From the NCBI GenBank assembly GCA_046598715.1, contig JBKJIE010000093.1, forward strand, positions 16,964 through 80,963: a stretch of DNA of 64,000 nucleotides. The letters run 5' to 3'. Numbering within the stretch: the first letter of the stretch is position 1; every line of letters begins with the position of its first letter. Source of the stretch: Acidimicrobiales bacterium (GTDB taxonomy: Bacteria > Actinomycetota > Acidimicrobiia > Acidimicrobiales > VFJN01). The position numbers and the translations under genes are program-made. The notes under the pieces were generated by a model, which saw only the letters and a program-made list of their open reading frames with translations, was not told where the DNA came from and did not search any database. Of this stretch, positions 5,243-38,531 are shown piece by piece.

Positions 5243-5247
5243 AGGCG

Positions 5248-19457: not shown

Positions 19458-21734
19458 CTACTGGCGGGCGATGGCTTCCTCCGCGGCGATCTCGGGATCC
19501 TCGACGGCGGCGCCGGCCACATCGATGTCGACCCGGTGCAGCGTGCCGGTGAACTCGAACCGACCGCGGTAGTCCTCGTCAGCGGGGGAGAAGTCTGGCG
19601 ACCAGCCGGCGGTGAGGCCGGCGCCGGTCAGCGAGAAGCGGCTCCACACCGTGCGCTTCACCTCGCCGGAGCCGATCACCTCGCCGTCGACGAGCAGCTC
19701 CACGGTCGGTGGGTCGAACCGCATCGACAGGGTGTGGTCGCCGGGCGTGAGGCGACCGCCGGGGACGGTCGCCTCCACCCGGTACACGCGCCAACCGGCC
19801 AGGTTGTGCACGTACACGAGCCGGCCGTCGCCGAGGAGGTGGAACGACCAGCCGCCGAGCACTGAGCCTTGGACCGCCAGCACCCCCTCGACCGTTGCCA
19901 GGCTCTCGGGGATCGTGACGTGCGCCGTGATGGCGTGGGCCCGGCTGCGCACGTTCACGGCCACGCTCTCGGCGACGGGGGAGCGCCCCGGCCAGTAGGT
20001 GTACCGCGCTCGCTCGCGCACCGACGACGCTCGCTCGAACACGAGCTCGGAGAACGGGCGGTTGTCGAGCGGCAGCACGTTGTTGCGCTCCGCCTCCACC
20101 CACCACCACGCCACCATCGCAGCGAGCCGATCCGGTTCGGCCTCCGCGAGGTCATGGCACTCCGAGGGGTCGGCGCGCAGGTCGTAGAGCTCCCAGGGCG
20201 CCTTGTCGAGACCAGGCTCCTCCACCTGCACCTCGTGGTAGGTCACCGCCTTCCACCCGTCCTGGTAGAGGGCCCGACACCCGAGCATCTCGTAGTACTG
20301 GGTGGTGTGGCGCTCAGGCGCCTCGGCCTCGGCGAACGAGTAGGCGAAGCTCACGCCATCGAGCGACATCTGCTCCACCCCGTTGACCGCCTCTGGCATC
20401 TCGATGCCGATCACCTCCAGCAGCGTGGGGACGATGTCGACGGCGTGCACGTACTGGCTCCGCACCTCGCCGCTGGCCCCGAGCCCACGCGGCCAGTGGA
20501 CGATGAGCGGATCGGCGACACCGCCCTCGTGGGTCTCGCGCTTCCAGCGCCGGAAGGGCGTGTTGCCGGCGACCGTCCAGCCCCACGGGTAGTTGTTGTG
20601 GATGCGGGGGCCGCCGATGTCGTCGAGACGACCAGCGGCCTCCTCGACCGTGCGGGGGAGAGCGTTCCAGACGCGGGCGTCGTTCAGTGATCCGAACGGA
20701 CCTCCCTCCGATGACGCGCCGTTGTCGGAGAGCACGATGATCACCGTGTTGTCGAGCTCGCCGAGCCCGTCGAGGCGGGCCACGAGCCGGCCGATCTCGG
20801 CATCGGTGTGCGAGAGGAAGCCCGCGAACGCCTCCATGTAGCGCGCGTACACGCGCCGCTCCTCAGCGGAGAGAGAGTCCCAGGCCGGCACCCAGTCCGG
20901 TCGCTCCGAGAGCTCGGCATGCGGCGGCATCACCCCCGTTGCCTTCTGGCGAGCCAGCGTCGCCTCCCGCCAGGTGTCCCATCCAGCGTCGAAGTGCTCG
21001 TGGTAGTGCTCGATCCACGTCGCTGGCGACTGATGGGGCGAGTGACACGCACCGGTGGCCAGGTACAGGAACCACGGCTTGTCCACGTCGACGTTGCGGA
21101 GGTCCTCGATGAACTCGATCGAGTGGTCGACGAGGTCGGTGGTGAGGTGATAGCCGTCCTCGTAGGTGCCCGGCGGCTCGACCTGGTGGTTGTCGTGGAT
21201 CAGAGCGGGCACGAACTGGTGGGTCTCGCCGGGGAAGAACCCATAGAAGCGCTCGAAGCCGCGTCCGAGGGGCCACCGGTCACGGCGAGCACCGAGGTGC
21301 TCTTCGTCCTCGGGTGTCAGGTGCCACTTGCCCACCGCGTAGGCCGCATAGCCGTGCGGCGTGAGGATGGCGGGCAGCATGCCGCAGGCCTTGGGGATCC
21401 GACCGTCGTAGCCCGGGAAGCCGGTGGCCAGGTCGACGATGCGGCCCACACCGGTGCGGTGGTGGTTGCGACCCGTGAGCACGCAGGCGCGCGTGGGCGA
21501 GCAGAGCGCGGTGGTGTGGAAGCTCGAGTAGCGCAGCCCGCCGGCGGCCAGCGCGTCGAGGTGCGGCGTGGCGATGTCGGAACCGAAGCAGCCAAGCTGC
21601 GCGAAGCCGACGTCGTCGAGGATGACGAGCAGCACGTTGGGTGCGGCCTCGGGCGGACGCGGGTCATCCGGCCACCAGGCCGTCGACTCCCAGTGGTAGC
21701 GACCAATCGTGCCCTTGAACTCCCCGGGTTCCAT
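19458..21734 (-). CDS. Arylsulfatase-type sulfatase (Cys-type, ~758 aa, with C-terminal beta-rich extension)
   Basis: Sulfatase signature LCSPTRACVLTGR (CxPxR) after LVILDDVGF, and SDNGAS later in the sequence. Confidence 0.9.
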   Translation of the reverse strand: MEPGEFKGTIGRYHWESTAWWPDDPRPPEAAPNVLLVILDDVGFAQLGCFGSDIATPHLDALAAGGLRYSSFHTTALCSPTRACVLTGRNHHRTGVGRIVDLATGFPGYDGRIPKACGMLPAILTPHGYAAYAVGKWHLTPEDEEHLGARRDRWPLGRGFERFYGFFPGETHQFVPALIHDNHQVEPPGTYEDGYHLTTDLVDHSIEFIEDLRNVDVDKPWFLYLATGACHSPHQSPATWIEHYHEHFDAGWDTWREATLARQKATGVMPPHAELSERPDWVPAWDSLSAEERRVYARYMEAFAGFLSHTDAEIGRLVARLDGLGELDNTVIIVLSDNGASSEGGPFGSLNDARVWNALPRTVEEAAGRLDDIGGPRIHNNYPWGWTVAGNTPFRRWKRETHEGGVADPLIVHWPRGLGASGEVRSQYVHAVDIVPTLLEVIGIEMPEAVNGVEQMSLDGVSFAYSFAEAEAPERHTTQYYEMLGCRALYQDGWKAVTYHEVQVEEPGLDKAPWELYDLRADPSECHDLAEAEPDRLAAMVAWWWVEAERNNVLPLDNRPFSELVFERASSVRERARYTYWPGRSPVAESVAVNVRSRAHAITAHVTIPESLATVEGVLAVQGSVLGGWSFHLLGDGRLVYVHNLAGWRVYRVEATVPGGRLTPGDHTLSMRFDPPTVELLVDGEVIGSGEVKRTVWSRFSLTGAGLTAGWSPDFSPADEDYRGRFEFTGTLHRVDIDVAGAAVEDPEIAAEEAIARQ

Positions 21735-26093: not shown

Positions 26094-27325
26094 GCACCGA
26101 CGTCTTCATCCTCGGCGGTCACCAGACCGACTTCGCCCGCAACTACGCCAAGGAGAGGCTCGAGGTGAGCGACCTCGTGGCCGACACCGTTTCGGGCACG
26201 CTCGCCGCCGCGCAGGTGGAGGCGTCCGCCATCGAGACGATCCATGTTGGAAACGCGTTCGGGCAGCTGTTCAACGGTCAAGGTCAGCTGGGCGGCATGC
26301 CCGCCACGGTGGAGCCAGACCTGTGGGGGGTGCCGTCGGCCCGTCACGAGGCGGCGTGTGCCTCCGGTGGCATCGCCGTGCTGGCGGCCATGGCCGAGAT
26401 CGAGGCGGGTCGCTACGACTGCGCGCTCGTGCTGGGCGTGGAGCAGGAGCGCAACGTGCGCGGCGACCAGGCCGCGCACCACCTCGGAGCGGCGGCGTGG
26501 GTGGGCCATGAGGGCGAGGGCGCCACGTTCATGTGGCCCCACATGTTCAGCCTGCTGGCCGACGAGTACGACCGCCGTTACGGGATCGACGAACGCCACC
26601 TCGGCGCGATCGCGGAGCTCAACTTCCGCAACGCCAAGCACAACCCGAACGCGCAGACGCGGGCGTGGGAGCACACGCCGGAGAGCTTCACCGCGGACGA
26701 CGTCGCCAACCCCGTGGTCGACGGTCGGATGCGGCGGACCGACTGCAGCCAGGTCACCGACGGCGGAGCGGGCGTGGTGCTCGCCGGTCGCCGCACCGCC
26801 GAGGCGTGGGCGGCCAGCCGCGGTCGCTCGGTCGACGACCTGCCGCGAGTGCTGGGATGGGGGCATCGCACCGTGGGCCTGCCCTACGACGAGAAGATCC
26901 GCCGATCGCACGACGACGAGTACGTGCTGCCCCACGTGCGCCGGGCCATCACCGATGCCTTCGGGCGAGCAGGCGTGGAGGACGTGTGGAGCGTTGATGC
27001 CGTCGAGACCCACGACTGCTTCACCCCCTCCGAGTACGCGGCGATCGACCACTTCGGGATCACCCCGGCGGGCAAGAGCTGGCAGGCCATCGAGGACGGC
27101 ACGCTCGAGCGCGACGGCGCTCTTCCCGTCAACCCGTCGGGTGGCCTCATCGGGGGCGGCCACCCCGTGGGGGCCAGCGGCGTGCGGATGGTGGTCGACG
27201 CGGCCAAGCAGGCCACCGGCACCGCGGGCGCCACGCAGGTCGACGGCGCCCGTCGAGTGGCCACCCTCAACATCGGTGGGTCGACCACCACCACCGTGTC
27301 GTTCGTCGTCGGCTTCGCCGACTGA
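26090..27325 (+). CDS. Thiolase-like protein (SCP-x/acetyl-CoA acetyltransferase family)
   Basis: ATG 26090 in an ATGA overlap with the upstream stop. Active-site Cys region HEAACASGG, and C-terminal NPSGGLIGGGHPVGASG. Confidence 0.8.
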   Translation: MSTDVFILGGHQTDFARNYAKERLEVSDLVADTVSGTLAAAQVEASAIETIHVGNAFGQLFNGQGQLGGMPATVEPDLWGVPSARHEAACASGGIAVLAAMAEIEAGRYDCALVLGVEQERNVRGDQAAHHLGAAAWVGHEGEGATFMWPHMFSLLADEYDRRYGIDERHLGAIAELNFRNAKHNPNAQTRAWEHTPESFTADDVANPVVDGRMRRTDCSQVTDGGAGVVLAGRRTAEAWAASRGRSVDDLPRVLGWGHRTVGLPYDEKIRRSHDDEYVLPHVRRAITDAFGRAGVEDVWSVDAVETHDCFTPSEYAAIDHFGITPAGKSWQAIEDGTLERDGALPVNPSGGLIGGGHPVGASGVRMVVDAAKQATGTAGATQVDGARRVATLNIGGSTTTTVSFVVGFAD

Positions 27326-27473
27326 GGGGGGGCAGGCTGAACGCCGTGCACGCGGCCTGCAACACTGGGAGCAGGCCGCTTCGACTGCTCTACATGTTCC
27401 CTGTCGATGCCTTCAGCGACGTGGCCTACGTGTTTGCAGATCCCGCCGAGAGGTACGAGGAGCCCTAGAGCGC

Positions 27474-28229
27474 ATGGATCTCGGCATCAGTGGTCGGCGA
27501 GCGGTGATCGCGGGCTCGTCGGCGGGTCTGGGCCTGGCTTCGGCGAGCGCCCTGTCGGCGTCGGGCGCACGGGTGGTGATCTGCGGGCGTGATGCCGGGC
27601 GGCTCGATGCGGCCGTCGCACGCCTGCGTGGCGCGGGCGGTGACATCACCGGTCTGGTGGCCGACGTCGGCTCGATCGAGGGCGCGACGCAGTTCGTCGC
27701 GGAGGCGACCGAGGTGCTCGGTGGCATCGACATCCTCGTGCCCAACGCTGGTGGTCCCCCACCGGGCACGTTCGCATCGACGGAGATGGATGCGTATCTG
27801 CCTGCACTGGAGCTCAACCTCCTCTCGACGGTGGCCATGTGCAAGGCCGCCGTTCCCGGCATGGTCGAGAACGGGTGGGGCAGGGTTTGCGCCATCACGT
27901 CGATCTCGGTGCGGCAGCCCATCGGCGTGCTGATCCTGTCGAACACGGCCCGCGCCGGGGTGACCGGCTTCCTCAAGACGCTTGCCACCGAGGTTGCACC
28001 ACACGGCGTCACGGTCAACACCGTGTTGCCGGGATCCCACGCCACGGATCGCCTCACCAAGGTCCACGGTGGTGACCTGTCGACGGCCGCGGCTGCAGTG
28101 CCGGCGGGTGTCCTCGGTCGGCCTGAGGACTTCGGCCAGGTCGTCGCGTTCCTGTGCTCGGATCAGGCCCGGTTCATCACGGGCGTGGCGCTGCAGGTCG
28201 ACGGTGGCGCCAGTCGAGCCCTTCTCTGA
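27474..28229 (+). CDS. SDR family oxidoreductase
   Basis: ATG 27474. GSSAGLG cofactor loop, NAGGPPPG and SNTARAG. The long upstream part of ORF 26244..28229 is shadow sequence over the thiolase gene. Confidence 0.85.
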   Translation: MDLGISGRRAVIAGSSAGLGLASASALSASGARVVICGRDAGRLDAAVARLRGAGGDITGLVADVGSIEGATQFVAEATEVLGGIDILVPNAGGPPPGTFASTEMDAYLPALELNLLSTVAMCKAAVPGMVENGWGRVCAITSISVRQPIGVLILSNTARAGVTGFLKTLATEVAPHGVTVNTVLPGSHATDRLTKVHGGDLSTAAAAVPAGVLGRPEDFGQVVAFLCSDQARFITGVALQVDGGASRALL

Positions 28230-28260
28230 ACCAGGTCCCCTTCTGAACGAGGTTGTTGCC

Positions 28261-28575
28261 GTGGGCTTTCGCCATGTCGTGATGTTCCGCTGGAACGATG
28301 CTGCCGACGAGGCCGGGCGGCAAGCGGTGGTCGACGCACTGGGGGGTCTGCCAGCGCAGATCCCCGAGATCCTCGAGTACCGAGTGGGTCCCGACGCCGG
28401 TCTCGCCGAGGACAACTGGGACTTCGTTGTGGTGGCCGACTTCTCGGACCAGGCGGGCTACGAGGTGTACCGCGACCACCCGGCGCACCTCGCAGTCATC
28501 GCCGACCGCATCCGCCCGCTCGTCGCCCAGCGCGCCGCGGTGCAGACACACGTCGCAGACGAGGTGGCCAGCTGA
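28261..28575 (+). CDS. Dabb (stress-responsive alpha/beta barrel) domain protein
   Basis: GTG 28261. Product VGFRHVVMFRWNDAA...YRDHPAHLAV is typical of the Dabb family. Confidence 0.75.
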   Translation: MGFRHVVMFRWNDAADEAGRQAVVDALGGLPAQIPEILEYRVGPDAGLAEDNWDFVVVADFSDQAGYEVYRDHPAHLAVIADRIRPLVAQRAAVQTHVADEVAS

Positions 28576-28589
28576 CCCTCGCCCGACTA

Positions 28590-28618
28590 TTGACCTAACC
28601 CCTGCCAGTACTTAGGTT
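28590..28618 (+). promoter_or_regulatory. Candidate sigma-70-type promoter (TTGACC-17 nt-TAGGTT) embedded in inverted repeat ACCTAA-N14-TTAGGT
   Basis: Read directly in the AT-richer gap, 33 nt upstream of ATG 28651. Confidence 0.3.
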
Positions 28619-28650
28619 GCGCCTCCGGACGTGATTCGGGGGTCGATTCG

Positions 28651-29409
28651 ATGTCGGAGCAAGCAGGGGGTGCAGGTCGTCGCGTCGCCATCGTGAGCGA
28701 CGCCGCTGGCTATGTCGGCCCGAACCTGAGCCGCGTGCTCGTGGAGCGCGGCCACGACCTCGTCATCGGTGATCCCGCCGACGGACTCGTCGACGAGCTG
28801 ACTGGCATGGGTGCCGCCATCGAGGTCGTCGAGCGGGTGCGCGACCTCGCCAAGGGCGACGCCGCCGAGCGCCTCGTGCAGGCGGCCATGGACCGCTTCG
28901 GGCGCATCGACTCGGCCACCGCGTTCACGGGCCGGATCGTGGTGGGCCGGTTCCTCCGCTCGACGATGGACGACATGCGCGCCGCGCTGGTGGGCTGCGT
29001 AGAGGCGCCCTATGCGTTTCTCCGGGTGGTGGTGCCGGTGATGGTGGAGCAGGGCGAGGGACAGGTGCTGGTGTTCACCAGCGCGGCTGGGGCCCGGCCG
29101 ACGCCCGGCGCGCCGCTGTACTCCTCGGCACGGGCGGGGGCCAACATGCTCGTGCGCAACGTCGCCGCCGAGGTGGCGGGCAAGGGCGTGCAGGTGAACG
29201 CCATCGGCACGAACTTCATGGACTTTCCCGAGTTCCTCAAGGCCAACAACGCCGAAGACCCAGAGGGCCGAGCCCGCGTGGAGGCGGCCGTGCCCATGGG
29301 TCGGCTCGGCACGCTCGCCGAGCTGGCCAGCTTCTCCGCCGCGTTCGTCGACGGCACCAGCCGCTTCGCGACCGGCCAGTTCGTGGCCTTCGCCGGAGGC
29401 TGGGCATGA
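28651..29409 (+). CDS. Halohydrin dehalogenase-like SDR-fold protein (HHDH family candidate)
   Basis: It lacks the TGxxxGxG cofactor loop and has S16-x4-Y21-x-G23 instead. The catalytic pattern is S144-x12-Y157-x3-R161 (TSAAGARPTPGAPLYSSARAG), that is Ser-Tyr-Arg rather than Ser-Tyr-Lys. The C-terminal region resembles HheC from memory (YSSARAGA..., MGRLGT...TGQFVAFAGGW). Confidence 0.75.
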   Translation: MSEQAGGAGRRVAIVSDAAGYVGPNLSRVLVERGHDLVIGDPADGLVDELTGMGAAIEVVERVRDLAKGDAAERLVQAAMDRFGRIDSATAFTGRIVVGRFLRSTMDDMRAALVGCVEAPYAFLRVVVPVMVEQGEGQVLVFTSAAGARPTPGAPLYSSARAGANMLVRNVAAEVAGKGVQVNAIGTNFMDFPEFLKANNAEDPEGRARVEAAVPMGRLGTLAELASFSAAFVDGTSRFATGQFVAFAGGWA

Positions 29410-31664
29410 CCTCGCCGAACGAGCCCTTCGGCGGCCACATCGGCCGCACCTATCACGACTCCACCCCGTGGTGGCCCGATCCGCCCGCGGGACTGGGTGG
29501 TCCGAACGTGGTGATGGTGGTGCTCGACGACACGGGCTTCGGGCACTTCGGGTGCTACGGATCTGAGCTGGCCACGCCGGCCATCGACCGCCTGGCCGCC
29601 GGCGGACTCCGGTACACCGGGTTCCACACCACAGCACTGTGCTCGCCGTCGCGCGCGGCGCTGCTCACAGGCCGCAACCCGCACGCCGTCGGCATGCGGG
29701 GCGTGTCCAACTGGAGCACCGGGTTCCCCCACATGCGGGGCGGGATCAGCCCGCGCGCGGCCACGGTGGCCGAGTTGCTCCGCGCCCACGGGTACGCCAC
29801 CTACGCGGCGGGGAAGTGGCACCTCGCGCCCATGGAGGAGTGCTCGGCTGCTGGCCCGCACACCAACTGGCCGCTGCAGAAGGGCTTCGATCGGTTCTAC
29901 GGCTTCCTCCAAGGCGAGACCGACCAGTTCCACCCCGAGCTCACGAGCGACAACGGCCACATCGATCCGCCGGGCCGTCCTGAGGACGGCTACCACGTGT
30001 CGGAGGACATCGTCGACCGCGCTACCGGGTGGATCGGCGACCTGCAGTCGATCCGTCCCGACCGGCCGTTCTTCCTCTACCTGCCCTTCGGGGCCACGCA
30101 CGCGCCCCATCAGGCACCGGCCGCGTACCTCGCTCGTTGGCGAGGCCGCTTCGACGACGGCTATGACGCCGCCCGAGCGCGCTGGTTCGCGCGTCAGATC
30201 GAGCTCGGCATCGTGCCGCCAGGCACCACGTTGGCCCCGCCAAACCCGGGCGTGCCCGCGTGGACCGATCTCACCGACAACCAGCGCCGGTTCTCCGCTC
30301 GGTTGCAGGAGGCGTTCGCAGCGATGCTCGAGCACACCGATGTGCAGATCGGGCGCCTCGTCGACTTCCTCGAGCGCCGGGCGCTGCTCGACAACACCAT
30401 CGTGATGGTGCTGTCCGACAACGGCGCCTCGCGCGAGGGCGGGCCCTTCGGTGTGATGGACGAGTTCAGCTTCTTCAACGCGGCGTGGGAGGACATCGAC
30501 GAGCTCGTGGCCACCCGCCTCGACGACATCGGGGGGCCCCACTCGCACTCGAACTACCCGTGGGGCTGGGCCCAGGCTGGCAACTCGCCGCTTCGTTGGT
30601 ACAAGCAGAACACCTACGGCGGCGGCGTGCGCGACCCGCTCGTCGTCCACTGGCCCACGGGCATCACCGACGCCGGCGCCATCCGCACGCAGTTCTGCCA
30701 CGCCGTCGACATCACCCCCACCATCCTCGAGCTCACGGGCGCGCCGGTGGCCGATCACCACAACGGCGTGGCGCAGATCCCCATGCACGGGGCATCGATC
30801 ACGGCCACCTTCGACAACCCGGCGGCGTCTGCACCGCGCTCGATCCAGTACTTCGAGCAGATGGGACACCGGGGCCTCTGGGCCGACGGCTGGAAGATCT
30901 CGACCTACCACGAGCAAGGCCAGCCGATCGACGACGACGAGTGGGCGCTCTTCCACCTCGACGAGGACTTCTCGGAGTGCCACGACGTCTCGGCGGAGCA
31001 TCCCGAGAAGCTCCGCGAGCTCATCGAGCTGTGGTGGGTGGAGGCGGGTCAGCACGGCGTGCTGCCCCTCGACGACCGCACGATCGAGCTGTTCGGCGGC
31101 CAAGCGCGCCCCGCCACGGTGCACGCCCGCCGCGACTACGTGTACTTCCCGCCGCTGGCCCACATCCCCGCCGACGCCGCGCCACCGCTGGGGGGCCGGT
31201 CGTGGACGATCACCGCCGAGGTCGACGTGCCCCACGGCGACGGCGAGGGTGTGCTCTACGCCCGGGGCGGACACAACGTGGGCCACACGTTCTTCGTCAA
31301 GGACGGTGCATTGCAGTTCGACTACAACGCGCTCGGCACGCACCACCGAGCCGCGGGCGCGCTGCCGCCGATGTCGGGCCGACATGCGCTCTCCGCACGG
31401 TTCGAACGGGCAGGGAAGGGCGGCACGCTGTCCCTCGCGCTCGACGGCGCAGAGGTGGCGAGCATCGAGATACCCAAGATCGTGCGGATGCTGGGCTCGA
31501 CGGGGCTCGACGTGGGACGCGACGCGCTGTCACCCGTGGTCGACGACTACGACGCGCCCTTCCCGTTCACGGGCACAATCGATCGCATCACCTTCGCCAT
31601 CCGGAGCCGACCCGACGCGGCCGAGATCGAGGCGACCGCCCGCGCGGAGCTCGCCAAGGAGTGA
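29406..31664 (+). CDS. Arylsulfatase-type sulfatase (Cys-type, 752 aa), paralogue of 19458..21734
   Basis: LCSPSRAALLTGR (CxPxR) after VVLDDTGFG, and SDNGAS. ATG 29406 forms an ATGA overlap with the HHDH-like stop. Confidence 0.9.
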   Translation: MTSPNEPFGGHIGRTYHDSTPWWPDPPAGLGGPNVVMVVLDDTGFGHFGCYGSELATPAIDRLAAGGLRYTGFHTTALCSPSRAALLTGRNPHAVGMRGVSNWSTGFPHMRGGISPRAATVAELLRAHGYATYAAGKWHLAPMEECSAAGPHTNWPLQKGFDRFYGFLQGETDQFHPELTSDNGHIDPPGRPEDGYHVSEDIVDRATGWIGDLQSIRPDRPFFLYLPFGATHAPHQAPAAYLARWRGRFDDGYDAARARWFARQIELGIVPPGTTLAPPNPGVPAWTDLTDNQRRFSARLQEAFAAMLEHTDVQIGRLVDFLERRALLDNTIVMVLSDNGASREGGPFGVMDEFSFFNAAWEDIDELVATRLDDIGGPHSHSNYPWGWAQAGNSPLRWYKQNTYGGGVRDPLVVHWPTGITDAGAIRTQFCHAVDITPTILELTGAPVADHHNGVAQIPMHGASITATFDNPAASAPRSIQYFEQMGHRGLWADGWKISTYHEQGQPIDDDEWALFHLDEDFSECHDVSAEHPEKLRELIELWWVEAGQHGVLPLDDRTIELFGGQARPATVHARRDYVYFPPLAHIPADAAPPLGGRSWTITAEVDVPHGDGEGVLYARGGHNVGHTFFVKDGALQFDYNALGTHHRAAGALPPMSGRHALSARFERAGKGGTLSLALDGAEVASIEIPKIVRMLGSTGLDVGRDALSPVVDDYDAPFPFTGTIDRITFAIRSRPDAAEIEATARAELAKE

Positions 31665-31670
31665 CAGGCA

Positions 31671-31874
31671 CTAGCGAGCGGGCTTGGGCTCCCACGTGGG
31701 CCGGGCCAGGGCACCGCGGCCGAGGAGCAGCTCCCGACACGGAGGGCACGTCCACCAGCCGGTCTCGAGGCCTTGTGAGAGCGTCTCGTCGCCGGCGAAG
31801 TCCTTGCGGCACCGTCCGCACACCCGCGGGGCGGGCGGCCCGTTGAGCTCCTCTGCGATCTGCGATGCGGACAC
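31671..31874 (-). CDS. Small zinc-ribbon-like hypothetical protein (67 aa)
   Basis: GTG start with GGAGG 7 nt upstream. Two CxxC pairs (CGRC, CPPC). Confidence 0.45.
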   Translation of the reverse strand: MSASQIAEELNGPPAPRVCGRCRKDFAGDETLSQGLETGWWTCPPCRELLLGRGALARPTWEPKPAR

Positions 31875-31983
31875 GATGATGCCTCCGAGCTGAGCTCAGA
31901 AGAGGCGTCGGGCCGAGCAGGCCGTCCCTTCCAAGGAAGACCCTCACGGTATCGGGGCGAGGCGACGAACCGCCCGTTCGACC

Positions 31984-32796
31984 TCAGGCGAACAGTGCTG
32001 CGCCGGCTCGGATCGCGGTGTACGCGGCCACCGCCACGAGGAGCGCGGCGAACCAGCGGAGGCTGCCCTCAGGGTCGAGGCGGTCGGCGATCTTGCCGCC
32101 GCTGAGCACGCCGGCGATGGCCGCCACCGTGAAGGGGAGGGTGACACCCCAGTCGATGCTCGTGGTGGCCAGGCGGGTGGTGAGGGCGACGGCTGAGTTG
32201 ATGGCGATCACGAGCAGCGACGTGCCGATCGCCTGCGGCATGGGGAGCTTGAGCACGAGGGCCAGCGCGGGGACGATCACGAAGCCGCCGCCGACGCCGA
32301 ACAGGCCAGTGAGGAACCCCACGGCGGTACCCGCGGACAGCACCACGACTGCCGTCCGGACATCGATCGGTCGCCGGGTGGCGACCGCCGTCGTGCCGGA
32401 TCGGTCGAGCTCCCGGGTCTCCCCGACCTTGGTGCACGTCGGGCACGCAGTGAGCATGCGCCACGCCGCGATCACGACGAGGCCGCTGAAGGCCAGGAGG
32501 AGCACATCAGGGTCGAGTCGACGGTTCAGCAGGGATCCGGCGAGGGAACCCCCGATGCCACACAGGCCGAACACCACTCCTTGGGCCACCCGCACCCGTC
32601 CCGCCCGCCAGTGGGCGCCCATCCCGACCAGCGAGGCGGTGCCCACCAGGAAGAGGCTGGTGGCGGTGGCAGCCTTCGGATCCTGACCGGCGGCGTAGAC
32701 GAGCGCCGGCACAGCGAGGATGGAACCGCCGCCGCCGAGGGCGCCGAGCGACAACCCGATCAGGAAGCCGAGTGGAGACGCGAGCAGGGCGCGCAT
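31984..32796 (-). CDS. TauE/SafE family sulfite/anion exporter
   Basis: 270 aa with ~8 predicted hydrophobic segments and repeated GxGGG motifs (LGALGGGGSILAVP, LFGVGGGFVIVP). The start overlaps the upstream stop by 1 nt. Confidence 0.85.
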   Translation of the reverse strand: MRALLASPLGFLIGLSLGALGGGGSILAVPALVYAAGQDPKAATATSLFLVGTASLVGMGAHWRAGRVRVAQGVVFGLCGIGGSLAGSLLNRRLDPDVLLLAFSGLVVIAAWRMLTACPTCTKVGETRELDRSGTTAVATRRPIDVRTAVVVLSAGTAVGFLTGLFGVGGGFVIVPALALVLKLPMPQAIGTSLLVIAINSAVALTTRLATTSIDWGVTLPFTVAAIAGVLSGGKIADRLDPEGSLRWFAALLVAVAAYTAIRAGAALFA

Positions 32797-34205
32797 CAGC
32801 GGGGCTGGGGCCCCGGCTCACCGGTCGGCGCGGTGCCAGGCCGTGTGGCGATCCAGGCGCCGTAGCCACCGATGAGGTCGGCGACGGTGTGGAACCCGTG
32901 CGCGCGCAACGTCGAGGCCGCCACCGACGACCGGTAGCCACCCGCGCAGTAGACGATCGTGGGACGGCCTCGGTCGAGGTCGTCGATGTGGTCGAGCAGC
33001 GATGGCAGGGGCACGTTGCGAGCGCCCGGGATGATGCCCTCGGCGGTCTCGCCCAGGTTGCGGACGTCGACCACCTGCAGGGTCGGATCCTCCGCGAGCC
33101 ACGTGGCGACGTCAGCCGCGGGGAGACGGCTCGCGGTCGCGGCAAGGTCGGGCCGGTCGGCGAGGACGGCTTCGATGGAGGGCACCTCGCCGACGACGTC
33201 GTCGAAGCCGATGCGAGCCAGGCGCACCTTGGCCTCGACGCCGCGGCCCGCCTCACCAAGGAGCACCACCTGCTGGCCCGGGCGCACGACGTCGCCCGCG
33301 TACTCGGCGAACCGGCCGTCGAGGCCCACGTTCACCGAGCCCCGCACGTGGCCGGACGCGAACGACTCCGGCGGACGGGTGTCGAGCAGGACGGCGCCAG
33401 TGCGTCCCAGGTCGAGCGCCTCGTCGATGGTCAGCGCAGCCGGCGGCTCGTGGTCGTCGAGGAGCTCTCGCTCCCGACGGTTGGCGTTGGCTGCGAACGC
33501 GAAGTACAGCGGCGCCACCCCTTGGCCTTCGGTGACCGCCTCGACGAACGCGTCTTCCGACATGGGTGCCAGCGCGTAGTTCGTGGCCCGTTGCTCGCCG
33601 ATCGTGGACGACGCTGCCGTGGACAGGTTCTTGCCGCAGGCGGAGCCGGCACCGTGGGCGGGGAAGACGCGCGTGGGGTCGGGGAGCGTGAGCAGCTGCT
33701 CGTGCAGCGACCGGTGCAGGTCGCGGGCGAGGCTGTCCGCGGTGCGCCCCACCGAGGTGAGCAGGTCGGGTCGGCCGACATCGCCGATGAACAGGGTGTC
33801 GCCGGTGAGCACACCCCAAGGGGCCGCGTCGGGGTGCTCGTAGACGACGATCGAGATGCTCTCGGGCGTGTGGCCGGGGGTGTGACGGATCTCGAGGGTC
33901 ACCTCGCCCAGCGAGAGCCGCTGACCGTGAGCGAGCGGATCGATGGCGAAGTCGGCCTCGGCGGCATCGCCGTAGGAGATCACAGCGCCCGTGGCCGCGG
34001 CGAGCTCGAGATGCCCCGAGAGGAAGTCGGCGTGGAAGTGCGTCTCGATGACCCGCTCGATGGTGAGGCCATGGACCTCGGCGTCGGCGAGGTAGTCGGA
34101 GGTGTCTCGTTGGGGATCCACGACCACGGCGCGGCCGGTCGTCTCGTCGCCGATCACGTAGCTGTAGAGCGACAGGCAACCGAGCTGGTGCTGGTGAAAG
34201 TACAC
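32796..34205 (-). CDS. Persulfide dioxygenase (MBL fold, ETHE1/CstB-like) fused to two rhodanese domains
   Basis: MBL motif THFHADF. The C-terminal rhodanese has the active-site loop YCAGGYRS. Confidence 0.85.
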   Translation of the reverse strand: MYFHQHQLGCLSLYSYVIGDETTGRAVVVDPQRDTSDYLADAEVHGLTIERVIETHFHADFLSGHLELAAATGAVISYGDAAEADFAIDPLAHGQRLSLGEVTLEIRHTPGHTPESISIVVYEHPDAAPWGVLTGDTLFIGDVGRPDLLTSVGRTADSLARDLHRSLHEQLLTLPDPTRVFPAHGAGSACGKNLSTAASSTIGEQRATNYALAPMSEDAFVEAVTEGQGVAPLYFAFAANANRRERELLDDHEPPAALTIDEALDLGRTGAVLLDTRPPESFASGHVRGSVNVGLDGRFAEYAGDVVRPGQQVVLLGEAGRGVEAKVRLARIGFDDVVGEVPSIEAVLADRPDLAATASRLPAADVATWLAEDPTLQVVDVRNLGETAEGIIPGARNVPLPSLLDHIDDLDRGRPTIVYCAGGYRSSVAASTLRAHGFHTVADLIGGYGAWIATRPGTAPTGEPGPQPR

Positions 34206-34233
34206 GATGTTCCTCCGTGTGGTCGTCGGGGGG

Positions 34234-36399
34234 TCAGTGGGAGAAGCTGATGTGCGGAAGGCGGCGATCGAGCCAGGCGGGCACGTACCACGCTCGTTCG
34301 CCGAGCATGCCCAAGAGGGACGGCACCAGCATCATGCGGATGACCGTGGCGTCGAGCAGCACGGCGAGGGCCAGGGTGACCCCCAGCTCGGTCGGTGGGA
34401 TCGGACCCGTCACGCCGAACGCGATGAAGACCACGATCATGATCAGCGCCGCGTTCGTGATGGGGCGCCCGGTGCGGGCGATGCCCTCGCGCACGGCCAG
34501 CCGAGCGTCGCCCGTTGCGTCCCGGCGCTCCTTGATGGCTGCAAGCAGGAACAGCTGGTAGTCCATCGACAGGCCGAACAGCAGCGCGAAGAAGAACAGC
34601 GGCGCCCATGCATCCACGAAGCCCTGGTGCTCGATGCCGAGAAGCGACGCCCCGTAGCCGTGCTGGAAGACCAGTGTGGCGAAACCGAAGCTGGCGGCAA
34701 CACCGACCAGGTTCAGGAGGATCGACGAGACGGCGATCACCAGGCTGCGGAACACCACGAGCAGCAGCACGAACGCGACCAGCATGATCGCTCCAACGGC
34801 CAGCGGTGCCGCGCCCGTGAGCGCCGCGGTGAGGTCGTGGTTCTGGGCCCCAGGTCCACCGACGGTGGCGTCGGGGACGACGGGCTCCAGGTCGTGGCGG
34901 AGGCGGCCGACCAGCGATGAGGTGGCCTGGTCGTCCACGGCAGTGGCGGGGATGACCCGCACGACGGTGCGTCCGGTGGCGGACGGTTCGCTCACGACCC
35001 GAGCGTCAACGACCCCTGGCTCGGCGGCTGCCATCTCGACGACCGTGGTGGAACGCCCGGCAGGCGCGGTGATGAACAGGGGTGCAGCGGCCCCAGGGCC
35101 GAAGGCATCGACGACCGCTTCGTAGCCGTCGCGGCTCTGCTGGCCCCGGTCGACCACGCGCGCGCCGGGCATGCCCAATCGCATCCCGAACGCGGGGCTG
35201 GCCAGGAGCAGCAGGATGCCGAGGCCAGCGGCCAGCGTGACCCCCGGACGCCGCATGGCCGCAGCGGTCCACCGGGCCCACCGCCCCTCCGCGGCACGGT
35301 CCAGATCTTCGTGGCCACGGGCCACGAGGACCCGATCGCCGAGGGCGACGAGGATCGCGGGCAGGAGGGTGAGCGATGCGGCCGCGGTGGCCACCACCGA
35401 GAGGATCATCCCAAGGGCCATCGAGCGGAAGACCATCACGGGCACGAAGAAGACAGCCGCCAGCGAGAGCACGACCGTGAGGGCAGACAGGAACACCGCC
35501 TTGCCGGCGGTGGCGAGGGTGCCGGCCACCGCGTCGAGGGCATCCTTGCCGTCCTCGCGCTCCTCTCGGTAGCGGGAGACGATGAAGAGGCTGTAGTCGA
35601 TGCCGACGGCGAGGCCGATCATCATCGAGAAGTTCATGGACCACACCGACAACGGCGTGAGCCCCGTACCCAGGTGGAGCGCCGCGAACCCGACCGCGAT
35701 GCCGGCGATGGCGAGGATCAGGGGGATCCCGGCGGCGATGGCCGACCCGAAGGCGACGAAGAGGAGGATGACGGTTGGCAGCCCGGAGAGCAGCTCGGCG
35801 CGGTGGAGCGCCTGCTCGTTCTCGGTGTTGAAGTCGTGCCACACAGCCCATTCGCCCGTGGCGTTCGCAGTCGCGCCCTTGGGTAGGTCGATGCCCGCGA
35901 TGGTGTCCATCACCGCACCCGCGGCCTCTGGCCGGTCGGTGTCGTGCGGGGCGTCGAGCCCGACCGGCACCAAGGCGGTGCGGCCATCGGGGGAGATGAG
36001 GCCGGCGTCGGGGGGTGCTTTGAGCGGATCGACCACCGTGGTGGTGCGGCGGCTCCCCTGAAGGCCAGCGACGAGCGCGTGGAGGCCCGCAGGGTCCCGG
36101 ACGATCGGAGCAGCCTGGTGGTAGGCCACGATTGCTGCCTCCGCGCCGAGCTGGGGGAAGTCGCGCCGGATCTCGTCGCGCACCTGCTGCGCGGAGGAGC
36201 CCTGGGCCTCCCATCCGGCTCCTGAGAGGGCTGACGTGACGGTGATGGCGAGCGGTGCGGCCACCAGCACGATGAGCACCCACATGGTGAGCACCCGTCG
36301 CGGTCGGCGGCCGGCGGCCCGGCCGAGGCGGGCGAGGATGCCATCACCCTGCGGGTGATCCGATGATGACTGGGTGCGGGGATCCTCGATGAGGGTCAC
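34234..36399 (-). CDS. MMPL family RND-type membrane transporter
   Basis: 721 aa with two blocks of ~6 predicted TM helices separated by soluble loops, and typical MMPL sequence (ILARLGRAAGRRPRRVL..., MNFSMMIGLAVGIDYSLFIVSRYREE). GTG start at 36399. Confidence 0.85.
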   Translation of the reverse strand: MTLIEDPRTQSSSDHPQGDGILARLGRAAGRRPRRVLTMWVLIVLVAAPLAITVTSALSGAGWEAQGSSAQQVRDEIRRDFPQLGAEAAIVAYHQAAPIVRDPAGLHALVAGLQGSRRTTTVVDPLKAPPDAGLISPDGRTALVPVGLDAPHDTDRPEAAGAVMDTIAGIDLPKGATANATGEWAVWHDFNTENEQALHRAELLSGLPTVILLFVAFGSAIAAGIPLILAIAGIAVGFAALHLGTGLTPLSVWSMNFSMMIGLAVGIDYSLFIVSRYREEREDGKDALDAVAGTLATAGKAVFLSALTVVLSLAAVFFVPVMVFRSMALGMILSVVATAAASLTLLPAILVALGDRVLVARGHEDLDRAAEGRWARWTAAAMRRPGVTLAAGLGILLLLASPAFGMRLGMPGARVVDRGQQSRDGYEAVVDAFGPGAAAPLFITAPAGRSTTVVEMAAAEPGVVDARVVSEPSATGRTVVRVIPATAVDDQATSSLVGRLRHDLEPVVPDATVGGPGAQNHDLTAALTGAAPLAVGAIMLVAFVLLLVVFRSLVIAVSSILLNLVGVAASFGFATLVFQHGYGASLLGIEHQGFVDAWAPLFFFALLFGLSMDYQLFLLAAIKERRDATGDARLAVREGIARTGRPITNAALIMIVVFIAFGVTGPIPPTELGVTLALAVLLDATVIRMMLVPSLLGMLGERAWYVPAWLDRRLPHISFSH

Positions 36400-36484
36400 A
36401 GAGTCGCTCGTTTCAGGTCGGGGCGCGGATGAGACTGGGGTCGCGGTGACACGGACGCGGCAGTTGCCGGTTGTGCGGGCTGCG

Positions 36485-36754
36485 TCAGGCCAGCTTGGTG
36501 AACATCTTCTGGACGTCGGCCAACTCGTAGCCCTCGGCCGCCGAGCGCTCGGGGTCCTCGAGGCACCAGGTCAGCCCGGCGGCGACGAGCACGAACCCCG
36601 TCTGCTCCAGTGCCTTGTTGGCGGCCGAGAGCTGGGTGACGATGTCTCGACAGTCGCGGTGGTCCGCGAGCATCTGCTGGATCCCGCGCACCTGGCCCTC
36701 CACTCGGCGCAGGCGGCGAATCAGGTCGTCGACGGTGTCCTCAGGGAGCTCCAT
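36485..36754 (-). CDS. CsoR/RcnR-family repressor, CstR-like (persulfide-sensor type)
   Basis: 89-aa DUF156 fold (RLRRVEGQVRGIQQML). Cys35 and Cys64 are present, with Gly60 where Cu-sensing CsoR has His (x-C-x-C fingerprint). Confidence 0.85.
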   Translation of the reverse strand: MELPEDTVDDLIRRLRRVEGQVRGIQQMLADHRDCRDIVTQLSAANKALEQTGFVLVAAGLTWCLEDPERSAAEGYELADVQKMFTKLA

Positions 36755-36765
36755 GGCTCCACGCT

Positions 36766-36785
36766 ATATACCCCTGGGGGTATAT
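36766..36785. promoter_or_regulatory. CsoR/CstR-type operator 1: ATATACCCC-TG-GGGGTATAT (perfect 9-bp inverted repeat)
   Basis: Read directly, 12 nt upstream of the cstR-like start in the divergent intergenic region. The G/C tract flanked by AT-rich arms is the known CsoR-family operator style. Confidence 0.6.
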
Positions 36786-36826
36786 GCAACACCCGAAGGG
36801 CCCCTTGGCTCGGGACCTTTCGGATC

Positions 36827-36840
36827 TACCCCCCGGGGTA
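36827..36840. promoter_or_regulatory. CsoR/CstR-type operator 2: TACCCC-CC-GGGGTA
   Basis: Read directly, about 20 nt upstream of the SQR start. It has the same core as operator 1. Confidence 0.5.
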
Positions 36841-36861
36841 TGGATGCCCTTGGCTAGAGGT

Positions 36862-38109
36862 ATGACACATCGAGTTGTGATCCTCGGCGGCGGAACCGGC
36901 GGAACCCTCACTGCGAACCGGCTGCGCCGTCGATTCAGCACCGACGCCGTCGCCATCACCGTGGTGGACCAGGACGATCGCCACGTGTACCAGCCTGGGC
37001 TGCTCTTCGTTCCCTTCGGCCTGGCCCACTCTGAGGACATCGTTCGGCCGCGGCACCGTCAGCTGCACGATGACATCGAGTTCCGCCAGACGGCGATCGA
37101 TCGGGTGGAGATCGTGGACAACGAGGTCCACCTCGCCGATGGCGCCGTCGTGCCCTATGACGTGCTCGTCATCGCCACGGGCGCGGTCCTCGTGCCCGAG
37201 GAGACTGAGGGCATGACGGGGCCGGGGTGGATGGAGAAGGTCTTCACCTTCTACACACCCGAGGGCGCTGGTGCCCTCGAAGCCGCGCTGGCCACCTTCG
37301 ACGCGGGGCGGGTCGTCGTCAACGTCGTCGACATGCCGATCAAGTGCCCCGTCGCGCCGCTCGAGTTCTGCTTCCTGGCCGACTGGTACTTCCACGAACG
37401 CGGCATCCGCGACCGCGTGCAGCTCACCTACGTGACGCCCCTCGACGGCGCGTTCACCAAGCCAGTCGCGTCGAAGCAGCTCGGGGCGATGCTGGCCGAC
37501 AAAGGCATCGAGCTCATCACCGAGTTCAACACCGGCGAGGTCGACGGGGCCGGGGGTCGGCTCGTGTCCTACGACGAGCGCGAGGTGGCCTTCGATCTCG
37601 CCGTGGTGATCCCGCTGCACGGCGGCGCCCCCTACGTGGGTCGGTCGGCCGGTCTCGGTGACGACCTCAACTTCGTTCCCACCGACGAACACACGCTGCA
37701 GTCGAAGGTGGCCCCCAACGTGTTCGTGATCGGTGACGCCGCCAACGTGCCTGCCTCCAAGGCTGGCTCGGTGACGCACTTCGAAGGCGAGACGCTGGTG
37801 GAGAACGTCAGTCGGTTCCTCGAGGGCGAACCGCTCGAGGCCGGCTTCGACGGCCACGCGAACTGCTTCATCGAGACCGGCTTCCACAAGGCGCTGCTCA
37901 TCGACTTCAACTACGACACCGAGCCCCTGCCCGGCCACTACCCGACCGGCGTGGGACTCCCACTGCTGAAGGAGTCGCGCCTGAACCACCTCGGGAAGCT
38001 GCTCTTTCAGCCCTTCTACTGGCACGGGCTCCTGCCCGGCCGTGAGATCCCCGGCATCGGGTCGGCCATGCCGACCGCCGGCAAGCAACCCATCCAGAGG
38101 GAGGACTGA
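36862..38109 (+). CDS. sqr: Sulfide:quinone oxidoreductase-like FAD-dependent oxidoreductase
   Basis: ILGGGTGG FAD motif, conserved Cys contexts PIKCPVAPLEF and GHANCFIETG, and GDAANVP. The start is ATG 36862, or 36844. Confidence 0.8.
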   Translation: MTHRVVILGGGTGGTLTANRLRRRFSTDAVAITVVDQDDRHVYQPGLLFVPFGLAHSEDIVRPRHRQLHDDIEFRQTAIDRVEIVDNEVHLADGAVVPYDVLVIATGAVLVPEETEGMTGPGWMEKVFTFYTPEGAGALEAALATFDAGRVVVNVVDMPIKCPVAPLEFCFLADWYFHERGIRDRVQLTYVTPLDGAFTKPVASKQLGAMLADKGIELITEFNTGEVDGAGGRLVSYDEREVAFDLAVVIPLHGGAPYVGRSAGLGDDLNFVPTDEHTLQSKVAPNVFVIGDAANVPASKAGSVTHFEGETLVENVSRFLEGEPLEAGFDGHANCFIETGFHKALLIDFNYDTEPLPGHYPTGVGLPLLKESRLNHLGKLLFQPFYWHGLLPGREIPGIGSAMPTAGKQPIQRED

Positions 38110-38111
38110 CG

Positions 38112-38531
38112 ATGTCGACAACGACGATCGCCGCCACCGAGGTCGAGCTGAACGACGAGGGCTTCTTCGTCCATCCCGAGCAGTGGACCGAGGACATGGC
38201 GCCTGAGCTGGCCCGTCGAGATGGCATCGACGAGCTCACCGAGCCCCACTGGACCGTGCTGCGGTTCATGCGGGCCGAGTACTTCGACAAGGGCACCGGG
38301 CCGACGGTCCGCGTGCTCGGCAAGACCTCCGGCGTGTCGATCAAGGAGCTCTACCAGCTCTTCCCCAACGGCCCGGCCAAGGTCGCCGCCCGCATCGCCG
38401 GCATCCCCAAGCCTCGCGGCTGGCATCTGAACAGGAGCGAACCATGGCTGAACGCATCACACCCGACCCGATCACGAAGGTCTCGATCGTCATCTCGAAG
38501 GGGTCCCTCGACGGGGTCTACCCAGGGCTGA
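38112..38531 (+). CDS. DsrC/TusE-family sulfur-relay protein, with the C-terminus apparently disrupted by a +1 frame change
   Basis: Family-typical LTEPHWTVLRFMRAEYF...LFPNGPAKVAARIAGIPKPRG. It then reads W-H-L-N plus a 34-aa Arg/Ser-rich tail overlapping the next gene. Removing one G at 38422/38423 gives the canonical ...PKPRGCI-stop ending at 38430. Confidence 0.7.
   Translation: MSTTTIAATEVELNDEGFFVHPEQWTEDMAPELARRDGIDELTEPHWTVLRFMRAEYFDKGTGPTVRVLGKTSGVSIKELYQLFPNGPAKVAARIAGIPKPRGWHLNRSEPWLNASHPTRSRRSRSSSRRGPSTGSTQG

Follow-up and report, generated by a model that had tools for sequence, protein, structure and literature searches.

The stretch analysed here, called the window throughout, comprises 64 kb (G+C content 69.7%) of contig JBKJIE010000093.1 from an Acidimicrobiales bacterium, the origin that is also annotated for proteins near-identical to the one in question. 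Two genes on its forward strand are the subject of this work. The first encodes a protein of 252 amino acids from the short-chain dehydrogenase/reductase (SDR) superfamily that resembles halohydrin dehalogenases (HHDHs), the second a sulfatase of 752 amino acids. HHDHs catalyze the reversible closure of an epoxide from a vicinal haloalcohol by means of a Ser-Tyr-Arg triad (PMC4989007; PMC11976700). An earlier note had drawn attention to the open reading frame of the putative HHDH, to its two motifs, to its overlap with the following gene and to the CxPxR motif of the sulfatase (here CSPSR), and on re-reading of the sequence all of these positions proved exact. The G+C content at third codon positions (0.89 for the HHDH gene and 0.91 for the sulfatase gene) favours these frames over long antisense reading frames. 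The features of the locus are:

28588-28610, forward strand: degenerate copy of the putative operator described below, TATTGACCTAACCCCTGCCAGTA, with 3 mismatches, 41 nucleotides before the ATG
28590-28618, forward strand: putative promoter with -35 box TTGACC (28590-28595), 17-nucleotide spacer and -10 box TAGGTT (28613-28618)
28638-28642, forward strand: possible ribosome-binding site GGGGG, 8 nucleotides before the ATG of the HHDH gene (sequence only)
28651-29409, forward strand: HHDH reading frame, 252 amino acids, predicted G-type halohydrin dehalogenase of the 7WKQ/AbHheG subclade without the HheG loop
28696-28719, forward strand: motif 1, S16-x4-Y21-x-G23 (SDAAGYVG), in place of the glycine-rich NAD(P) loop
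29080-29133, forward strand: motif 2, predicted catalytic triad S144-x12-Y157-x3-R161, with Arg at the position of the SDR Lys
29406-29409, forward strand: ATGA overlap of the HHDH stop codon (TGA, 29407-29409) with the sulfatase start codon (ATG, 29406-29408)
29406-31664, forward strand: sulfatase reading frame, 752 amino acids, predicted formylglycine type (S1), without visible signal peptide
29640-29675, forward strand: sulfatase signature C79-S-P-S-R-A-A-L-L-T-G-R, aligned to the Pseudomonas aeruginosa arylsulfatase (PAS), with Cys79 as predicted formylglycine residue
31062-31661, forward strand: C-terminal domain of the sulfatase (residues 553-752), predicted beta-sandwich of the concanavalin A-like/laminin-G type

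When the 252-amino-acid protein was compared with the PDB by phmmer, the best match was 7wkq, "halohydrin dehalogenase from Acidimicrobiia bacterium" (E = 1.2e-105, 66.7% identity, ungapped), followed by AbHheG (8h8y; E = 9e-95, 61.5% identity, ungapped) and by variants of HheG from Ilumatobacter coccineus (E about 1e-59, 45.9% identity). A-, B- and C-type HHDHs matched at 1e-16 to 1e-21 together with ordinary SDRs, the first of which appeared at 2.5e-20, about 80 orders of magnitude behind the best HHDH match. Homology to solved HHDH structures places the protein's agreement with the HHDH motifs far beyond chance. In motif 1, Asp and Tyr have taken the second and sixth places of the SDR loop T-G-x3-G-x-G, by which the glycine-rich loop is destroyed; in HHDHs this segment lines the nucleophile and halide pocket that replaces the NAD(P) site (PMC11976700; PMC4989007). 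Motif 2 conforms to S-X12-Y-X3-R, the published HHDH motif (PMC11976700).

The protein could nevertheless be an ordinary NAD(P)-dependent short-chain dehydrogenase in which both motifs are matched by accident. Pfam indeed recognized only a generic SDR family (adh_short_C2 at 1.5e-27), NCBIfam returned generic SDR and arylsulfatase similarity with no model at its cut-off for either the HHDH or the sulfatase, and the source annotations of the relatives read 'SDR family oxidoreductase' or '3-oxoacyl-ACP reductase'. However, it is HHDHs that lead among the solved relatives by the margin given above, SDAAGYVG stands where the glycine-rich loop should be, and no NCBIfam model reaches its cut-off in favour of an SDR either. 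In addition, we aligned the window protein with its 80 best genome relatives (L001-L080, the best of at least 281 loci; n = 81), and the triad of Ser, Tyr and Arg was invariant in 81/81, with Arg and not Lys in every case. An ordinary dehydrogenase is thus extremely improbable and, as far as sequence can go, already refuted. The proposal of an HHDH-type SDR devoid of the NAD(P) loop, made in the earlier note, withstood comparison with the known HHDHs: 7wkq, AbHheG and HheG, and not Lys-type SDRs, are its closest homologues.

The AlphaFold (AF2) model of the protein (pLDDT, the predicted local distance difference test, 74.7) shows alternating strand and helix elements. In a Foldseek search with this model the first 25 PDB matches were all chains of G-type HHDHs and ordinary SDRs came next at 1e-15; the template modelling (TM) scores against HHDH structures were 0.78-0.85. 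The protein groups with HheG (about 1e-59) and not with HheA, HheB, HheC and others (1e-16 to 1e-21). One element of HheG, the flexible N-terminal loop of residues 39-47, is absent, about 12 residues being missing in the alignment. As 7wkq and AbHheG also lack this loop, its absence points to a loop-less subclade within the G type and not to exclusion from that type. Taken together, we regard the window protein as almost certainly a genuine G-type HHDH. The enzyme itself, judged by these relatives, is not new but a fresh member of a known, crystallised subclade.

This subclade is represented by 7WKQ and AbHheG (8H8Y/8HQP), both listed for 'Acidimicrobiia bacterium', crystallised and used in biocatalysis; 7WKQ is presumably the enzyme of Wang et al. 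2022 (reference 62 of PMC11976700). The window protein shares with them whole-length, ungapped identity of 66.7% and 61.5%, respectively, the Ser-Tyr-Arg triad, the short form without the HheG loop, a motif 1 that does not start with Thr, and the bacterial class of the host. It differs from them at 33-38% of the residues, carries an 8-residue N-terminal extension and is known here as a predicted protein. The archetype of the G type, HheG of I. coccineus (PDB 5O30), has 46% identity with the window protein and agrees in fold, triad and host class. HheG converts internal and cyclic epoxides that are sterically demanding (PMC11536340, PMC10099379). It possesses the flexible loop 39-47 of which about 12 residues are missing in the window protein, and deletion of the loop inactivates HheG (PMC11536340).

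Across the 81 aligned sequences, motif 1 retains the aromatic residue (Y/F) in 80 and the Gly in 79, while its first residue varies: A in 37, S in 19, G in 9, N in 6 and T in 4. Ser occupies this position in the window protein and in AbHheG (8h8y), Gly in 7wkq. The published motif reads T-X4-F/Y-X-G, and natural variants at the first position are on record (PMC11976700). Of the two fingerprints that the earlier note had called published, S-x12-Y-x3-R is therefore quoted as it stands in the literature, whereas "T/S-x4-F/Y-x-G" is not. As only 4/81 sequences begin with Thr, mining with T-X4-F/Y-X-G misses most of the clade. HHDHs had also been described as rare, and for this clade the description fails: relatives of the window protein are encoded in at least 281 loci of species-representative genomes and fall into more than 120 clusters at 90% identity, each at least 80% identical to the window HHDH. 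Only at 50% identity does their number shrink, to 47 representatives with E <= 1e-30 among 1.84 billion proteins, many of them fragments. The clade thus occupies little of sequence space and is not rare in number. The 80 best relatives are labelled Acidimicrobiia/Acidimicrobiales, Microthrixaceae, Ilumatobacteraceae or unresolved Actinomycetota. A marine setting, which had been suggested with a question mark, is not supported by their sources, which are mostly metagenome-assembled genomes (MAGs) from soil, peat, freshwater, groundwater and glacier-fed streams, with one sponge isolate.

The 752-amino-acid product of the second gene matches PF00884 at E = 1.7e-63, and among solved structures it comes closest to the P. 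aeruginosa arylsulfatase PAS (AtsA; 1hdh/4cxk, E = 7e-79 over residues 33-552). The likeness covers the catalytic domain including the CxPxR motif. In the alignment with 4cxk, the segments LDDTG, GKWHL, ATHAPHQ, SDNGA and WYKQ fall on corresponding segments of PAS, which we take to be its metal-binding (Asp pair) and catalytic (Lys/His/Asp-Asn) residues. Unlike PAS (1HDH, 4CXK), the window enzyme carries an additional laminin-G-like domain of 200 residues at its C-terminus. A search of the PDB with residues 553-752 gave no sequence match, and Pfam Laminin_G_3 remained below its cut-off (E = 0.006); the ortholog P0149 passes it. The AF2 model of this domain is a beta-sandwich (pLDDT 80.5) for which Foldseek returned CBM40, laminin-G/LNS, pentraxin and SHBG structures with TM scores of 0.4-0.55. 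On the strength of this model, the domain is a predicted ligand-binding module of the concanavalin A-like kind. By eye, no signal peptide is visible in the sulfatase, which is accordingly classed as a predicted cytoplasmic enzyme of the formylglycine type. The ATGA junction, the PF00884 match and the alignment with PAS bear out that the HHDH gene is coupled by overlap to a Cys-type S1 sulfatase gene. A second long sulfatase (758 amino acids, CSPTR, 44% identical to that of the operon) is encoded 7 kb away on the reverse strand (19458-21734), next to SDR, aldehyde dehydrogenase and glutamine-synthetase-like genes.

A strict scan of positions 27300-32200 for sigma-70 promoters and terminators called nothing, and a promoter emerged only from comparison of the regions upstream of orthologous operons. 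Their alignment revealed a conserved CTATTGACA-N7-TGTCAATAG followed by TAG(G/T)TT. The consensus is a 23-bp palindrome, TATTGACA-N7-TGTCAATA, which overlaps a TTGACA -35 box, with a 17-nucleotide spacer leading to a TAnnnT -10 box. In the window, the putative promoter listed above was matched by eye to the TTGACA-N17-TAG(G/T)TT that the orthologous operons have in common. The degenerate palindrome at 28588-28610 is the sole operator match in the 64 kb at up to 3 mismatches, and no match was obtained in 100 shuffles. Searches of the orthologous loci (both strands, 937 kb, a few mismatches allowed) located the motif upstream of the HHDH operon in 33/80 loci, including such in which a different gene, c10 or a DinB-like gene (both described below), comes first. 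Elsewhere in the 937 kb the pattern is almost absent, and the few other matches adjoin genes of the island described below. A TetR gene lies divergently in 21 of the 33 operator-bearing loci. Given the position and the symmetry of the palindrome, we infer that it is a TetR operator.

These features delimit a predicted two-gene operon of a presumably cofactor-free HHDH and a sulfatase, with a promoter of its own in the 75-nucleotide gap behind a Dabb gene, and co-transcription of the two genes is very probable. The Dabb gene (28258-28575) and the SDR gene preceding it (27474-28229) were considered as members of the same unit and rejected, since they stand beside the HHDH gene only in the same organism and in the closest relative (L081, L001) and since the conserved promoter lies after both of them.

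Recurrence of this arrangement was then followed in 80 genome loci with 6-kb flanks by tblastn with the window proteins and with representatives of the commonest neighbour families. Any sulfatase was present within 6 kb of the HHDH gene in 27/80 loci and a long sulfatase of the window's type in 18/80. The latter immediately follows the HHDH gene in the same direction in L001, L006, L007, L010, L016, L021 and L053; it lies divergently just upstream in L026 and L074, convergently behind a TetR gene in L042, L044, L045 and L047, and further from the HHDH gene in the remaining loci of the 18. The overlapping junction, ATGA or GTGA, is kept in 7 loci (the window, L001, L006, L007, L010, L016 and L021; HHDH identity 71-90%). 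When the HHDHs were arranged in a similarity tree and cut into 17 clades at 75% identity, sulfatase associations occurred in at least 7 of them, in differing arrangements. The synteny of HHDH and sulfatase, for which recurrence in other genomes had been put forward as a check, is hence not unique to the window.

Further genes recur at these loci. The most frequent enzymatic neighbour, found in 20/80, is a haloalkane dehalogenase (HLD), an alpha/beta hydrolase whose representative matches 6f9o at 1.6e-117 and, also strongly, 4mj3, 5esr and DhlA (1b6g/1edb); the island enzyme is a genuine haloalkane dehalogenase, of the HLD-I type. A divergent TetR gene is found in 30/80 loci, and a protein of the DinB_2 superfamily in 17/80, with weak matches only (DinB_2 6e-06, 3cex 4.5e-4, mycothiol-S-transferase 0.17). 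An SRPBCC protein gene is present in 13/80 and a family of short sulfatases (about 510 amino acids, CMPSR), usually behind the SRPBCC gene, likewise in 13/80. Finally, a protein of about 170 amino acids, c10, is encoded directly upstream of the HHDH gene and apparently co-transcribed with it in 13/80 loci; it gave no match in Pfam or the PDB, and examples are found at L046 5483-5995, L006 3612-4064 and L014 5531-5992. In 51/80 loci one or more of these genes are present, the long sulfatase gene counted among them. The most complete coupling is seen in L021 (5947-9910), where the operator is followed by HHDH, ATGA, sulfatase, GTGA and HLD, that is, by three translationally coupled genes. Look-ups that started from sulfatase orthologs led to loci without an HHDH gene. 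In L084 (4399-10805) an HLD gene transcribed away from a TetR gene is followed by genes for a long sulfatase, a DinB-like protein, an SRPBCC protein and a short sulfatase, in L082 (2161-5536) an HLD gene diverges from that for a long sulfatase, and L083 shows neither of the two. These three loci mark the HHDH as an optional module. In two groups of relatives other genes were noticed. In one HHDH clade, formed by Microthrixaceae-labelled MAGs (L025, L027, L028, L030, L034, L041 and L043), an upstream cytochrome P450 gene replaces sulfatase and HLD; in the clade of L029, L037-L039 and L055-L066, genes for an amine-oxidase-like flavoprotein and a lipoprotein-like protein lie beyond the TetR-HLD pair.

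A tblastn search of the window (E = 1e-3) detected no TetR, HLD, DinB-like, c10, SRPBCC or short sulfatase gene. With only the long sulfatase beside the HHDH, the window holds a reduced form of the island, and by its gene content its operon represents a shortened version of a modular island of the Acidimicrobiia that is probably controlled by TetR.

As these genomes are rich in sulfatases, the loci were used as their own control. Up to 200 bp from the HHDH gene, sulfatase genes number 0.33 per kb, against 0.06 at 0.2-2 kb and 0.029 at 2-6 kb, so that their density next to the HHDH is about 11-fold that of the outermost zone. With the 2-6 kb density as background, 10 adjacent sulfatases were observed where 0.88 were expected (Poisson P = 4e-8). 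The background is conservative in that some distal sulfatases are still island members. The loci are, however, interrelated, and the estimate that counts only 5 adjacency events as independent (P = 2e-3) is the safer one.

Pairing of an HHDH with a second enzyme has precedents. In the hheC-echA operons (Agrobacterium radiobacter AD1), an HHDH is co-transcribed with another enzyme in a presumed haloalcohol pathway (PMC11976700; PMC4989007). There, the partner is an epoxide hydrolase that acts after the HHDH step, whereas here it is a sulfatase that we would place before it; the Acidimicrobiia island contains no epoxide hydrolase, and HheC is only a distant relative of the window protein (E = 1.7e-16). 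The sequence of HLD, HHDH and epoxide hydrolase is realized in the DhaA-HheC-EchA route for 1,2,3-trichloropropane, mainly an assembled or engineered pathway. Its logic, in which a halohydrin is made and the epoxide then closed, resembles the natural pairing of HLD and HHDH in 20/80 loci. Beyond this pairing, the natural island encodes sulfatases, TetR, DinB-like and SRPBCC proteins, and the window copy is devoid of the HLD. In the literature searched, which lacks most subscription journals, no paper was found that treats 'halohydrin dehalogenase' and 'sulfatase' together, nor anything specific on the gene context of HHDHs; an apparent paper on a gene cluster of haloalkane dehalogenase and sulfatase was dismissed as a coincidence of its reference list. 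The papers found on 7WKQ and AbHheG concern biocatalysis and contain no description of their gene context. A natural, recurrent HHDH-sulfatase(-HLD) island with its own operator is thus not described in the literature searched, and it is the gene context that constitutes the new part.

Given the recurrent gene neighbourhood, we favour the view that the HHDH shares a pathway or regulon with the sulfatases and haloalkane dehalogenases, to which we assign a probability of about 0.6. In such a pathway, the substrate would be a hydrophobic aliphatic compound that bears halogen and sulfate-ester groups; to judge from the SRPBCC protein and the laminin-G-like domain, the ligands may resemble lipids. 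The sulfatase would hydrolyse the sulfate ester to a free hydroxyl group and, where a halogen is present on the neighbouring carbon, the HHDH would close the epoxide and release the halide. For this step Tyr157 is the predicted base, Ser144 would hold the oxygen and Arg161 would lower the pKa of the Tyr, whereupon the oxygen displaces the halide. By the same logic, the HLD of other genomes could produce halohydrins from vicinal dihalides, and removal of the epoxide may fall to the DinB-like protein, although it is only a guess that this protein conjugates epoxides as a transferase. G-type HHDHs favour bulky internal or cyclic epoxides and hardly convert small beta-chloroalcohols (PMC10099379), and the proposed pathway is in keeping with both traits. 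Sulfated halohydrins as the actual substrate are a tentative and somewhat doubtful suggestion. The earlier idea of a pathway on a halogenated and/or sulfated metabolite, still a hypothesis, has gained strength from the HLDs and the shared operator in the island.

Chlorosulfolipids may be considered as a concrete instance. In danicalipin A, chlorines at C13 and C15 stand on either side of the C14 sulfate. Chemically, this compound is 1,14-docosane disulfate in hexachlorinated form. The chlorosulfolipids as a class, polychlorinated alkyl sulfates, occur in chrysophytes and marine plankton as natural compounds whose secondary sulfate esters have chlorines as neighbours (PMC5632803, PMC13413282). 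Sulfatases and HLDs would generate vicinal halohydrins from such molecules and the G-type HHDH would turn these into internal epoxides. That the island is a dedicated, TetR-regulated system for the catabolism or detoxification of natural chlorinated alkyl sulfates, for example chlorosulfolipids, we deem speculative and rather unlikely.

Several observations weigh against a shared pathway. The window copy lacks TetR, HLD and DinB genes and its operator deviates by 3 mismatches. Only about one third of the loci contain a sulfatase and about one quarter an HLD, so the coupling is facultative, and because the loci are phylogenetically related the counts overstate the independence of the cases. A crude test of the six frames of the window, and of the window only, disclosed no GN[VIL]WEW-type motif of the formylglycine-generating enzyme. 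The second long sulfatase marks the genome as rich in sulfatases, in which some proximity is expected by chance. Many host MAGs stem from soil, where producers of chlorosulfolipids are not known to be prominent, and in vitro the substrates offered so far have been dehalogenated only weakly by G-type HHDHs (PMC10099379).

Much of this would also be accounted for if the genes were merely co-located without a common substrate, the sulfatase scavenging sulfur or turning over sulfate esters and the HHDH detoxifying haloalcohols or epoxides within a loose xenobiotic or stress island. The facultative coupling (18/80 loci for the long type of sulfatase), the abundance of sulfatases in these genomes, exemplified by the 758-amino-acid enzyme at 19458-21734, the free shuffling of island components and the promiscuity of the arylsulfatase that comes closest to the sulfatase among solved structures would all agree with such an arrangement. 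It is harder to reconcile with a 4-nucleotide translational overlap kept in 7 loci, with the coupled HHDH-sulfatase-HLD operon of L021, with a single operator motif that occurs at these promoters and hardly anywhere else in 937 kb, and with the 11-fold excess of sulfatases at adjacent positions over the 2-6 kb zone. We therefore consider mere co-location an explanation to be taken seriously, though a fairly unlikely one. Alternatively, the HHDH could act in vivo mainly in epoxide opening or as a non-halide lyase, with a physiological anion or with sulfate as the leaving group from a vicinal hydroxy-sulfate, in which case its link to the sulfatase would reflect sulfate and not halogen chemistry. 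The beta-chloroalcohols tested are scarcely dehalogenated by G-type HHDHs, which accept many anions in epoxide opening (PMC10099379). A review leaves room for further physiological roles of HHDHs (PMC4989007), and two different sulfatase families flank the HHDH gene. However, true HLDs are the most frequent enzymatic neighbour (20/80), which indicates carbon-halogen chemistry. Furthermore, we know of no HHDH that uses sulfate as a leaving group or nucleophile, and this alternative appears quite improbable. A joint pathway or regulon of HHDH, sulfatases and HLDs remains the reading that we prefer.

Downstream of the operon, the window contains a cluster of genes with a predicted function in sulfide and persulfide handling (31984-38531), the gene content of which resembles cst-type operons of sulfide detoxification:

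31984-32796, reverse strand: TauE/SafE exporter
32796-34205, reverse strand: fusion of metallo-beta-lactamase and rhodanese
34234-36399, reverse strand: MMPL transporter
36485-36754, reverse strand: CsoR-family repressor
36784-38109, forward strand: SQR-like flavoprotein
38112-38531, forward strand: DsrC-like protein

This cluster was considered as a functional partner of the HHDH operon and rejected, as it is convergent and common only to the closest relatives L001 and L010. Elsewhere in the window, genes for an MprF-like protein with a lysyl-phosphatidylglycerol synthase C-terminal domain (10386-13451, forward strand; longest reading frame 1021 amino acids) and for two flavin monooxygenase-like proteins and a PhyH-family dioxygenase (5101-6741, forward strand; 52489-54087, reverse strand; 7589-8773, forward strand) were noticed; no link of these genes to the HHDH operon was seen.

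HHDHs and haloalkane dehalogenases are workhorses of biocatalysis, and their natural substrates are still a gap. Only two HHDH genes are placed in an operon with an epoxide hydrolase, and other physiological roles are not excluded (PMC4989007). The recurrent and apparently co-regulated pairing of HHDH, sulfatase and HLD points to a class of substrates that can be synthesised, beta-halogenated alkyl sulfates, and the pair of regulator and operator could be used to screen for the inducer. For enzyme mining, it follows from the variability of motif 1 that the T-X4-F/Y-X-G fingerprint overlooks most of this large clade. Should the island indeed serve chlorinated alkyl sulfates, G-type HHDHs and HLD-I haloalkane dehalogenases would for the first time have a physiological class of substrates and a pathway, and the preference of the G type for bulky internal epoxides would be explained.

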